From: Candidatus Bathyarchaeia archaeon
GTDB lineage: Archaea > Thermoproteota > Bathyarchaeia > Bathyarchaeales > Bathycorpusculaceae
Assembly (NCBI GenBank): GCA_050012255.1
Contig: JBEKHN010000002.1
Coordinates: 144,118 to 208,117 of the forward strand
Length of the DNA stretch: 64,000 nucleotides
Direction of reading: 5' to 3'
Position numbers and translations under genes: made by a program. Of this stretch, positions 28,371 through 31,110 are shown piece after piece. Position 1 is the first letter of the stretch, and every line of letters begins with the position of its first letter. A model generated the notes under the pieces. The model did not search any database and was not told the origin of the DNA. It saw nothing but the letters and a program-made list of their open reading frames with translations.

Positions 28371-28447
28371 TTCATCGGCCACAGCCGAGTGTACAGCGTC
28401 GGAAATCTTTAATTATGAACCCGTTATAGTATGCATCCTCTTCAGAA

Positions 28448-29761
28448 ATGGTGATGTCTATGGAGAAGGATCAGATAGCTCTGCCAATAGACGAGTTTCC
28501 CACTAAATGGTACAACATTGCGCCAGACTTGCCTGAGCCGCTTCCTCCGCCGAAGGAGCCTGAAACTGGGCCTTCGAGGATGGATTTCTTGGGCAGAACC
28601 ATGATTAAGGAGTGTCTCGGACAGGAAATGTCCAATCAAAGCTGGATCACTATACCTGAAGAAATCCGTGAGCTCTACATTCACATGGGAAGGCCCAGGC
28701 CGCTTTATAGGGCCAAACGTTTGGAGAAGCGTCTCGGCTTGAAGAAGGTCAAGCTCTATTATAAACGCGAGGACTTGTCTCCGACGGGTTCGCACAAGAC
28801 TAACACTGCGATTGCTCAGGCTTACTATGCGCTTAAGGAGGGAAAAACAACCTTGAGCACTGAAACAGGTGCGGGACAGTGGGGTACAGCGCTTGCTTAC
28901 GCTGCGCAGCTCTTAGAGCTCAAATGTGTGGTTTTCTGGGTTAAGTCCGTCTTCGACTGGAAGGCTGACCGCAGGGTTTTGATGAATCTCTTAGGCGCAA
29001 AGGTCTATTCCTCTCCAAGCAAACAAACCAAGTTTGGCAGCGATTTTCTTTCAAAAAACCCGAACAGCCCGGGCTCGCTTGGTATAGCAATATCGGAGGG
29101 ACTGGAGTATGCAGAGACGCATGATGATACTGTTTACTGTCTGGGCTCGGTTTTGAATCACGTTATGACTCAGCAGTCAGTGATAGGGTTGGAGACGATC
29201 AAACAGTTTGACATGATCGATGAGAAACCAGACTTGATCGTCGGCTGTCTGGGCGGCGGCTCTAACTTCAGCGGAATCGCACTTCCATTCATCGGCGAAG
29301 TTTTGAAAGGAAAAAGAGAATGCGACTTCTTGGCAGCCCAGTCGATGGCGGCTCCTAACCTTGTGAAGGGAGAATACAGGTATGATTTTGGTGATGTCGC
29401 TGAATACACGCCGCTCCTGAAGATGTACACTTTGGGTCACAAAGCTGATATGACCCCGATTAAAGCAGACGGGTTGCGGTACCATGCGGCTGGTCCAATC
29501 GTGAGCCTGCTGAGAAAGCATAATATTGTCAAAGCCGTGGCCTATCCTGCTGACGAGAAGTCAATCTTTGAAGCGGCTAAACTTTTCCTTCAGGCTGAGG
29601 GTTGGTTAGCCGCTCCAGAATCCAGCTATGCAGTCCGCGCCAGTATTGATGAGGCTGTTAATGCTGAAAAGGCTGGCGAAGAGAAAACGATCTGCATGAA
29701 CATAAGCGGACATGGGTGGCTGGATTTGGAGGCGTACAAGGAAAAGCTAGAAATTTCATAA
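28448..29761 (+). CDS. trpB2: TrpB2-type tryptophan synthase beta-like PLP enzyme
   Basis: WYNI, SPTGSHKTN, TETGAGQWG, GSVLNHV, GGGSN, GLRYH, ISGHG. Confidence 0.92.
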   Translation: MVMSMEKDQIALPIDEFPTKWYNIAPDLPEPLPPPKEPETGPSRMDFLGRTMIKECLGQEMSNQSWITIPEEIRELYIHMGRPRPLYRAKRLEKRLGLKKVKLYYKREDLSPTGSHKTNTAIAQAYYALKEGKTTLSTETGAGQWGTALAYAAQLLELKCVVFWVKSVFDWKADRRVLMNLLGAKVYSSPSKQTKFGSDFLSKNPNSPGSLGIAISEGLEYAETHDDTVYCLGSVLNHVMTQQSVIGLETIKQFDMIDEKPDLIVGCLGGGSNFSGIALPFIGEVLKGKRECDFLAAQSMAAPNLVKGEYRYDFGDVAEYTPLLKMYTLGHKADMTPIKADGLRYHAAGPIVSLLRKHNIVKAVAYPADEKSIFEAAKLFLQAEGWLAAPESSYAVRASIDEAVNAEKAGEEKTICMNISGHGWLDLEAYKEKLEIS

Positions 29762-29773
29762 ACGGCGATTCTA

Positions 29774-30497
29774 TCAGAATCTGTGGCCGTACTTTCCAGT
29801 CAATGGCACAAATGCTACGCCACCGAGATTTTCTTCCTTGATTTCTCCGTCGCTCGTCTTATTAATTTTGATCAGGTTTTGGAATAGAGACAGGCTGCCG
29901 ACTGGAATCAGCATGATTCCTGTGGGTTTCAACTGTTCGATTAGCACTTTAGGAACGTCAGGTGCAGCTGCTGTCACAAGGATTCTGTCGTACGGAGCCT
30001 TTTCAGGGTAGCCTGCTGAACCGTCGGCGTGAATTATCGTCACTCGGTCGCCGTACCCGCAGTTCATGATGTTCTTTCGGGCGAATTCGGCCAGACCTTG
30101 CACAATTTCAACGGTGTACACGTGTCCCCACTCGCTTCGCGGCGCAGTTTTCGGCGCGATCAGCTCAGAAATTGTGGCGGCGTGCCAGCCTGAACCTGCT
30201 CCGACCTCTAAGACTTTGAGTCCGATCTCCAACTGCAGGGCTTCATTCATTATTGAAACCATGTCTCGCCTAGCCGGCAACGAGGCCTTGGCTATGTGGC
30301 GCAGAAGCCGTCTGCCCGAAGCCTATTGGAAGAGGCGTATCGACAGCACCGTAAGACCGGATGTTTTCGGGAAGGAACTTTTCACGCGGCACTTTACGCA
30401 TCGTCTCAATAACCTTCGGAGAGCGGAGAACTGCTTCCTTAATCAGGTTCTGAATGAGCTTTTCCCATTCGTTTTCTTCCACTTGAAGCACCGACAT
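29774..30497 (-). CDS. pcm: protein-L-isoaspartate O-methyltransferase, two exons (30497-30296 and 30264-29774), 230 aa if spliced
   Basis: Upstream ORF VPREKF..PLPIGFGQTASAPH and downstream MVSIM..VLEVGAGSGW..APYDRI..FVPL are in different frames; removing 31 nt joins them. Confidence 0.9.
30265..30295 (-). other. 31-nt BHB intron in pcm mRNA
   Basis: Central helix CGCC/GGCG, bulges AC^A and AG^A, intron helix TAGCC/GGCTA, exon helix TG/CA. Confidence 0.85.
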
Positions 30498-30594
30498 AAA
30501 CAGTGGCCGAGTTGGTTATTAACATATTTGAATTTGAGAATAAGATGTTAAATAACAAACCCAGCCTAAAGATTAGACGCTAGCAGGAAGCGTT

Positions 30595-31035
30595 TTGAGC
30601 CGAAAAGAAAAAGCTGATTCGAACGCTGAAGAGCTGAGCAAGAAACTAGACCAGATAATTCACAGACTCGACCTTCTAGAAGAGTTGATCCTTGAAAAGC
30701 CAGAGTATGAGGGCTTAGCGGCATCTTTGCGTTTGACAAAAATGGGCATAGGCATGTATGGTGAGCCATTGAAGATTGCTTCTCGTCTAAAAAACGCTGA
30801 GACATACCTACGTCTAAGAGCCATTGCCCAAGACGAGATTTCACGGTGCATCGTTCAGGCATTGGCTGTGAAAGGAGCCTTGAATGTTTCCGCTATAACA
30901 CGGCAGGTGGCTTCAATGAGGGGAAAGGCAAGCAGACGCATAGTGCGTGACAGGCTGAAAAGGCTCGTAGAGCAGCGGGTTTTGTTAAAGACAGGCGGTC
31001 GGGTTCCCACTTACGAGTTGGTTGAAAAGGGTTGA
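30595..31035 (+). CDS. winged-helix protein
   Basis: C-terminal LNVSAITRQV..ASRRIVRDRLKRL. Confidence 0.65.
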   Translation: MSRKEKADSNAEELSKKLDQIIHRLDLLEELILEKPEYEGLAASLRLTKMGIGMYGEPLKIASRLKNAETYLRLRAIAQDEISRCIVQALAVKGALNVSAITRQVASMRGKASRRIVRDRLKRLVEQRVLLKTGGRVPTYELVEKG

Positions 31036-31110
31036 TCACCGACTGGTCACTTTTGCACAGAACACCTAACTATTGTGACCACTCCTTTGTCAGCTTAAGG
31101 TGAGCAAGAA

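Follow-up and report, generated by a model that had tools for sequence, protein, structure and literature searches.

The window, a stretch of 64,000 nucleotides from a Candidatus Bathyarchaeia archaeon within the 2.35-Mb assembly G000, carries a pcm gene whose coding sequence is split into two frames. This raises the question of whether the gene is broken or whether its two pieces are still expressed as one protein, and at which level they would be joined. An earlier reading of the same stretch, made from its letters without database searches (the sequence-only reading), had proposed that pcm holds an intron of the bulge-helix-bulge (BHB) type. We found that the minus-strand segment 30295-30265 is very probably an archaeal BHB intron in the pcm coding sequence, removed at the RNA level by the tRNA splicing machinery. 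This explanation is supported by the conservation of the site, insert lengths that vary without regard to frame, covariation between exon and intron, and the exact junctions of intron-less relatives. An RNA contig with the predicted joint adds to this, as do the EndA and RtcB genes and the cbf5 intron of the genome.

A 31-nt insert splits pcm into two frames

We located the two pieces of pcm and the elements of the predicted BHB motif in the window. Exon 1 runs from the ATG at 30497 to the first letter of the His59 codon. When each bulge is cut behind its second nucleotide, 30295-30265 (31 nt) is taken out, and the joined exons (202 + 491 nt) then amount to 231 codons including the stop, which gives a 230-aa protein-L-isoaspartate O-methyltransferase (PIMT) with the junction SAPH/MV. 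The claim that removal of these 31 nt restores SAPHMV and 230 aa is thus borne out by the coordinates, as it is by the continuity of the Pfam match and by the junctions of intron-less genes described below. Without splicing, the ORF list gives an N-terminal piece of 75 aa (30270..30497) that stops at the intronic TAG (30272-30270), just as the sequence-only reading had stated, and a C-terminal piece of 162 aa in another frame (29774..30280).

Table 1 Features of pcm and its predicted BHB intron in the window (positions are those of the window, written in the direction of the minus strand).
Feature	Position	Strand	Description
pcm exon 1	30497-30296	minus	202 nt; Pfam PCMT profile 3-63; NCBIfam pimt 6-67
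Predicted BHB intron	30295-30265	minus	31 nt; TAG in frame at 30272-30270 when unspliced
pcm exon 2	30264-29774	minus	491 nt; stop codon 29776-29774; Pfam PCMT profile 61-208
Central 4-bp helix, 5' strand	C30301-C30298	minus	exonic, in the Ala-Pro codons; pairs with 30270-30267
Central 4-bp helix, 3' strand	G30270-G30267	minus	intronic
5' bulge ACA	A30297-A30295	minus	5' splice site after 30296
Intron stem, 5' arm	30294-30290	minus	pairs with 30275-30271; reproduced by the MFE fold
Intron stem, 3' arm	30275-30271	minus	pairs with 30294-30290
3' bulge AGA	A30266-A30264	minus	3' splice site after 30265
Exon-exon helix, weak, 2 bp	30263-30262 (CA)	minus	C30263-A30262 with U30303-G30302

We scored the two pieces singly against protein families. 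The Pfam profile PF01135 (PCMT, cut-off 20.3 bits) matched the N piece with 51.1 bits (profile positions 3-63) and the C piece with 145.3 bits (61-208), while the NCBIfam pimt model gave 51.9 and 137.0 bits, both below its 159-bit cut-off. Since the coverage of PCMT runs from 3-63 to 61-208, no part of the pcm protein sequence is missing and the 31 nt were inserted. An Rfam search of 30100-30450 matched no family. The gene is convergent with a 437-aa ORF (28448-29761, plus strand) that resembles, from reading its translation, the pyridoxal-phosphate-dependent tryptophan synthase beta chain; 12 nt separate the two stop codons.

We then folded the insert region as a single sequence. The minimum-free-energy (MFE) fold recovered the intron stem and all but one of the four central pairs, the C at the start of that helix being taken by a competing upstream hairpin. 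The intron can also form an apical 3-bp stem. Compared with shuffled sequences, the fold of the pcm insert region was unremarkable (z = -0.64; 52 of 200 shuffles fold equally well), so that one sequence alone is no proof of the motif.

The same site is interrupted across Bathyarchaeia and in other classes

To compare the locus with its relatives, we searched for pcm at the level of the order (own genus, family and order) and found a true pcm in 38 of 41 genomes; in the remaining three (G010, G028 and G031) the matches were paralogous methyltransferases only. Using the protein of an intact relative as the tblastn query, 24 of these 38 genes were found to be interrupted, and every break was located at SAPH/M. 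Seven had an in-frame insert with stops and 17, including that of the window, were split in two frames, while 14 were uninterrupted. Among the nearest 80 public Bathyarchaeia loci, 64 were interrupted at the same site and 16 were not; the intron started with ATGG in 3 of the 64. In intron-less relatives the junction reads exactly as predicted for the spliced pcm.

The interruption was also observed at larger distances. In a sample of the class comprising 141 genomes, 124 had a pcm at E <= 1e-25 and about 30 of these were interrupted, G158 standing outside the sequence check for this count. The interrupted genes of this sample include families f20 and f35, which belong to other orders and were checked on fetched sequence. 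In other classes of the phylum, 14 of 85 pcm-bearing genomes, from families f43, f45, f56 and f60, were interrupted at the identical site. Separately, within the window's own family, the genus g33 yielded no pcm at E <= 1e-25 with this query in five sampled genomes that are 95-100% complete. The gene may be missing from this genus, or may have diverged strongly.

Exon and intron covary in 116 distinct inserts

The 155 loci that we parsed amount to 137 distinct sequences, of which 116 contain an insert and 21 lack one; the locus L159, a divergent second copy in the genome G236 without the Met anchor, was left out. The ratio of 116 to 21 is not a prevalence, as the class and phylum samples contributed interrupted genes only. 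The inserts were 21-57 nt long. Most of them (98 of 116) shift the frame, and the other 18 are in frame but contain a stop in 18 of 18 cases. In-silico splicing restored SAPH/M in all 116.

The central 4-bp helix was fully paired in 116 of 116 sequences, at fixed offsets from both splice sites. The sequence-only reading had proposed aligning pcm from relatives for an insert at the same site with covarying BHB pairs, and the alignment shows both. Three types of central helix were found: CGCC/GGCG (99 sequences), CACC/GGTG (14) and CGCC/GGTG (3), the last being a G-U intermediate. The CACC/GGTG type is a double compensatory change in which a synonymous site of the exon is coupled to the intron. 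This site is the third position of the Ala codon, which pairs with the intron. With the intron, the Ala codon was GCG in 102 genes and GCA in 14, the A always occurring with the compensating intron letter, whereas the 21 genes without the intron had GCA (11), GCG (6), GCT (3) and GCC (1). The third letter of the Pro codon is the first nucleotide of the 5' bulge. This codon was CCA in 108 and CCT in 8 intron-bearing genes, while intron-less genes used all four codons. The exonic synonymous sites are constrained only in intron-bearing genes.

We measured the covariation against two controls. In a set of 24 sequences, 86.9% of the cells were paired, compared to 73.5% after shuffling and 24-40% when the partners were slid; in the set of 116 sequences, the values were 88.7%, 76.8% and 23-44%. 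Cells changed on both sides numbered 62 against 21.6 in the shuffled data (24 sequences) and 210 against 53.4 (116 sequences). The observed pairing or double-change values were matched by 0 of 500 shuffles in either set. Covariation was found at all seven tested pairs of the intron stem, and 100% of the cells of the central helix were paired (116 sequences). At least three contiguous base pairs of the intron stem were present in 114 of 116. Without guidance, RNAalifold predicted the central helix, the 5' 3-nt bulge and the intron stem. The 5' bulge was ACA (103), TCT (7), ACT (5) or TCA (1), and the 3' bulge AAA (74), AGA (16), ATA (13), ACA (11) or TTA (2).

The motif had been described in the sequence-only reading as a canonical BHB. 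This holds for the 4-bp helix, the 3-nt bulges and the intron stem but not for the exon-exon helix, in which only a G-C pair is invariant (116 of 116) and the second, U-A pair is present in 42 of 116, leaving a single contiguous pair in 74. The exon-exon helix was also absent from the RNAalifold consensus. Its weakness indicates that the motif is not of the strict hBHBh' form but of the relaxed type that two-subunit endonucleases process. The interior of the intron was conserved neither in sequence nor in length. In families f35 (L136-L139) and f20 (L130-L135), for example, the pcm introns range from 21-22 nt, with a 4-5-bp stem, a loop of 3-7 nt and the bulges ACT and TTA, up to 47-57 nt with long GC-rich stems, and supply naturally occurring substrates of graded size.

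An RNA contig lacks the predicted intron

One RNA run, the peat metatranscriptome X1 (Logan contigs), shares words with the region, and we aligned its contigs on 28400-31100. Contig 7 (316 nt) covers 30053-30263 and 30295-30399 and skips 31 nt, as predicted for the splice; the position of the joint is ambiguous by 1 nt because both bulges end in A. In the bin 30220-30310 the depth of 3.58 is accounted for by contig 7 alone (5.43 x 60/91), which means that no intron-containing X1 contig aligned there.

The contig is identical to the window at 305 of 316 positions (11 mismatches). When the same 316 nt are compared between the window and other genomes, the intron-bearing congeners G001 and G007 match at 309 of 316 positions, against 267 of 316 for the nearest intron-less pcm (G003). 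On the neighbouring trpB-like gene, the identity of the X1 contigs is no more than about 92-93%, indicating that the X1 organism is related to the window strain but is not that strain. Judged from these identities, contig 7 most likely derives from an intron-bearing relative, the evidence leaning well to that side. An unsampled intron-less relative is the less likely source, and is conceivable because the intron has been lost within the genus. A joint matching the spliced junction that the sequence-only reading had suggested looking for in RNA was seen, skipping precisely the predicted 31 nt, but in a single assembled contig and from a related organism.

The genome encodes the splicing machinery and a BHB intron in cbf5

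We searched G000 for the enzymes that would process such an intron. Two EndA paralogs of 185 aa and 189 aa were found (G000:C2:43759-44004 and C13:19989-20243), each with N- and C-terminal endonuclease domains. The 185-aa protein aligns to the C-terminal (catalytic) repeat of NF006795, a two-repeat EndA model, and the 189-aa protein to the N-terminal (structural) repeat, with weak matches to 'subunit beta'. By eye, a Tyr/His/Lys pattern occurs only in the 185-aa protein, and we take this triad to be its catalytic residues. As far as these alignments go, the pair fits the two-subunit (alpha-beta) type. According to the accessible part of PMC5829648, non-canonical introns are cut only by the alpha-beta and epsilon types of endonuclease. 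RtcB is encoded in one copy (C13:40946-42256).

ARAGORN predicted introns in 17 of 45 tRNA genes of G000. Several of them are located at non-canonical positions, and one predicted intron of 506 nt may be a false call.

A 22-nt BHB intron also splits the cbf5 gene of G000 (G000:C18:1895-1916; locus L129, minus strand, about 1789-1810). Its motif is of the textbook form: exon helix and central helix have 4 bp each, the stem has 3 bp, and both bulges are 3 nt long. The intron lies between letters 1 and 2 of the catalytic Asp codon, which is also the position of the crenarchaeal cbf5 intron in the portion of Yokobori 2009 (PMC2738675) that was available. This shows that mRNA splicing of this type is already in the repertoire of the organism. 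In a class sample of 101 genomes, 77 had a TruB_N match. In about 27 of them the match begins at profile position 11-17 and the frame measures about 260-290 aa, and in about 9 it extends over the entire profile but contains stops. The cbf5 intron seems to be common in Bathyarchaeia, beyond the orders described in the available portion of PMC2738675.

How the interruption is bridged

In the sequence of events that we propose, pcm would be transcribed with its insert included. The 4-bp central helix would arise in the pre-mRNA by pairing between the Ala-Pro codons of the exon and the 3' end of the intron, and the intron stem would close the structure. A two-subunit EndA of the alpha/beta type would presumably cut after nucleotide 2 of each 3-nt bulge, in keeping with the rule that EndA cleaves between bulge residues 2 and 3 (PMC2738675, available in part), and RtcB would then ligate the exons and probably circularise the intron. 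The product would be an mRNA for the 230-aa PIMT, while unspliced RNA would yield the 75-aa truncated product.

We weighed four other explanations against this one. The split frame, the stop after 75 aa in unspliced RNA and the insignificant fold of the single sequence are also what would be expected if a random 31-nt insertion had inactivated pcm and made it a pseudogene, or if the insert were an assembly or sequencing artefact. Against this, 116 distinct sequences, assembled independently, all carry an interruption at this site, with inserts of 21-57 nt that share a conserved, covarying structure, and the flanking coding sequence is intact and conserved with Pfam coverage continuous over the break, so that an inactivated or misassembled gene has practically no probability left. 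Another way to obtain the full protein would be to keep the insert in the mRNA and have the ribosome pass over it, by bypassing (hopping) or programmed frameshifting. Known bypass elements combine a stable hairpin with a stop codon shortly behind the break, a combination that pcm shares. However, the shifts required are too varied (28, 29, 30, 31, 32, 34 ... nt, and 21-57 overall), no matched pair of take-off and landing codons restores SAPH/MV, what is conserved is the 4-bp helix and its two 3-nt bulges, at a fixed distance from the junctions, and the X1 RNA contig lacks the 31 nt. We therefore consider translation across the insert very improbable. The same low likelihood attaches to the assembly of two polypeptides without splicing, the N fragment of 75 aa and a C fragment whose translation would begin at Met60. 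An ATG (Met60) does stand 2 nt past the 3' splice site in every sequence, but two separate polypeptides would leave the covarying helix-bulge geometry and the coupling between Ala codon and intron unexplained, the break lies inside the most conserved PIMT motif, and the X1 contig joins the exons.

The insert could also be removed from the RNA by another nuclease and ligase, or by self-cleavage, in place of EndA and RtcB, and the weak exon helix, which deviates from the strict motif, would be in line with this. Yet the geometry is exactly that of the EndA rule, with the cut between bulge residues 2 and 3 (PMC2738675, excerpts), and the EndA pair of the genome fits the two-subunit type, where, in the accessible part of PMC5829648, alpha-beta and epsilon enzymes alone cut non-canonical introns. 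A ribozyme intron, moreover, would not fit into inserts of 21-57 nt, and the Rfam search matched no family. Removal by such other activities thus appears highly unlikely, and excision of the insert as a BHB intron by EndA and RtcB is the explanation that we follow below.

A search of the genome for further introns

We screened the 2.35-Mb assembly structure-first, combining BHB geometry with fused open frames and using shifted junctions as decoys. The screen returned 1169 candidates compared to 1102-1192 for the decoys, 146 compared to 142-158 after a codon-usage filter, and 79 compared to 63-92 for introns of at most 60 nt. The sequence-only reading had recommended scanning the other frameshifted genes of the genome for BHB motifs. 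Our screen recovered pcm and cbf5 but performed no better than the decoys, and among the candidates open to the Pfam test described next it yielded no further case. We checked the 77 other short candidates for Pfam continuity over the junction: 27 had hits on both pieces, none of them continuous, and these 27 were adjacent genes or paralogs. In the remaining 50, one piece had no Pfam hit, which placed them outside the continuity test.

We rejected two individual candidates. One, a diphthamide-synthase-like gene, can be read without interruption in a different frame. A gene for an MBL-fold hydrolase (G000:C14:18224-18259; loci L257 and L280) has the same length as its counterparts in G001 and G007 and carries an in-frame TGA in G000 where G007 has CGA and G001 has CCA. 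The TGA is a nonsense codon, due to a decaying gene or a base error, and not an intron.

The pcm intron compared with known systems

A cbf5 pre-mRNA intron of Crenarchaeota was reportedly described by Watanabe in 2002. In the parts of Yokobori 2009 (PMC2738675) available to us, the cbf5 intron resembles that of pcm in several respects: it is a short BHB intron in a coding sequence and lies in the most conserved motif, one of the two strands of the central helix is formed by exon nucleotides, the interior varies, the intron has been lost precisely in some lineages, and it is linked to a hetero-oligomeric EndA. The two genes differ in their products, a protein repair methyltransferase and a pseudouridine synthase, and the host range of the pcm intron is different and wider, covering Bathyarchaeia and four families of other classes. 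The exon-exon helix of pcm is also much weaker than the 4 bp of the cbf5 motif in G000. The BHB intron of HVO_1309 in Haloferax volcanii, as far as it is described in the accessible sections of Schwarz 2020 (PMC7714728), is like pcm an mRNA substrate of the tRNA splicing endonuclease, but it is located in the 5' UTR and interrupts no reading frame.

The BHB introns of archaeal tRNAs and rRNAs have the same 3-nt bulges and 4-bp helix and are presumably processed by the same enzymes, whereas in pcm the host is an mRNA, with no tRNA body to aid recognition and with a reading frame to preserve. In eukaryotes, HAC1 and XBP1 undergo unconventional mRNA splicing by IRE1 and a tRNA ligase or RtcB, in which the nuclease senses stress and the splicing is regulatory. 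As in pcm, an intron that changes the frame is removed from an mRNA by an endonuclease and a tRNA-type ligase, without a spliceosome. The pcm case differs in being archaeal and in being known here without a regulatory role.

In the accessible sections of Schwarz 2020 (PMC7714728), cbf5 is the only other BHB intron reported besides the 5'-UTR case, and it has been cited there and elsewhere for more than 20 years as the sole archaeal protein-coding gene with a splicing-endonuclease intron. The references in the available part of PMC12397907, which reach up to 2025, include nothing beyond cbf5, and those that the corresponding part of Yokobori (PMC2738675) mentions, for a rudivirus and for Sulfolobus, are predictions without confirmation. 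Our literature search, in which most subscription journals lay outside the full-text search, returned no report of a pcm intron and no paper combining isoaspartate or isoaspartyl with BHB or splicing endonuclease. It likewise returned no BHB intron in a Bathyarchaeota coding sequence, which is to be read as not found in print and not as never printed. On this basis, pcm appears to be the second protein-coding gene with an intron of the kind so far known from cbf5.

A second case means that mRNA splicing by the tRNA machinery is more than a curiosity of one gene. The pcm intron offers far more natural variation, with 116 distinct alleles that include compensatory changes between exon and intron, and it occurs in abundant uncultured lineages. 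With minimal inserts of 21-57 nt and a weak exon helix, its alleles offer a natural series of substrates for studies of relaxed-motif recognition by two-subunit endonucleases. In many genomes, gene-calling software presumably splits pcm into two entries or marks it as a pseudogene, and metabolic reconstructions would be biased as a result. Both coding-sequence introns, in pcm and cbf5, are located in invariant active-site motifs whose codons provide half of the recognition helix. This shared placement points to a rule on which sites can retain such introns and could guide the search for others.

Evolution of the pcm intron

We constructed a FastTree tree of 173 pcm proteins, consisting of the 137 distinct sequences and 36 intron-less genes of other families, with the junction columns excluded and one long outgroup row as the root. 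All but one of the intron-bearing genes (115 of 116) fell into one group of 142 rows with a support of 96, and the exception is a long branch. The intron state changed at least 15 times on the tree, with six changes forced by well-supported branches, compared to a mean of 48 for shuffled labels; as the sample is enriched for interrupted genes, these counts show clustering and repeated change and not rate or direction. Within the genus, the intron is kept in the window, G001 and G007 and is absent from seven others.

From the tree, the intron is probably old, with a single origin and repeated precise losses. One old gain followed by repeated precise losses has likewise been proposed for the cbf5 intron. 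Because the interior is unconserved in sequence and length, a function of the excised RNA is unlikely, and the repeated loss argues that the intron is dispensable.

The sequence-only reading had also suggested that splicing might act as a regulatory switch. This idea found no support, given the unconserved interior and the precise loss of the intron on several occasions. We regard it as unlikely that the single-origin intron has been kept across classes because it is used, with splicing by EndA and RtcB gating the production of PIMT. If this were true, the gating could couple PIMT to the state of tRNA processing or RNA repair under stress or dormancy, and pcm would be an archaeal counterpart of HAC1/XBP1-type conditional splicing. 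More relaxed mRNA introns would then be hidden in the split 'pseudogenes' of uncultured archaea.

A genome from another class, G236, carries two copies of pcm (loci L160 and L159). One copy is BHB-split at the usual site, and the second is divergent, with 38% identity and two internal stops.
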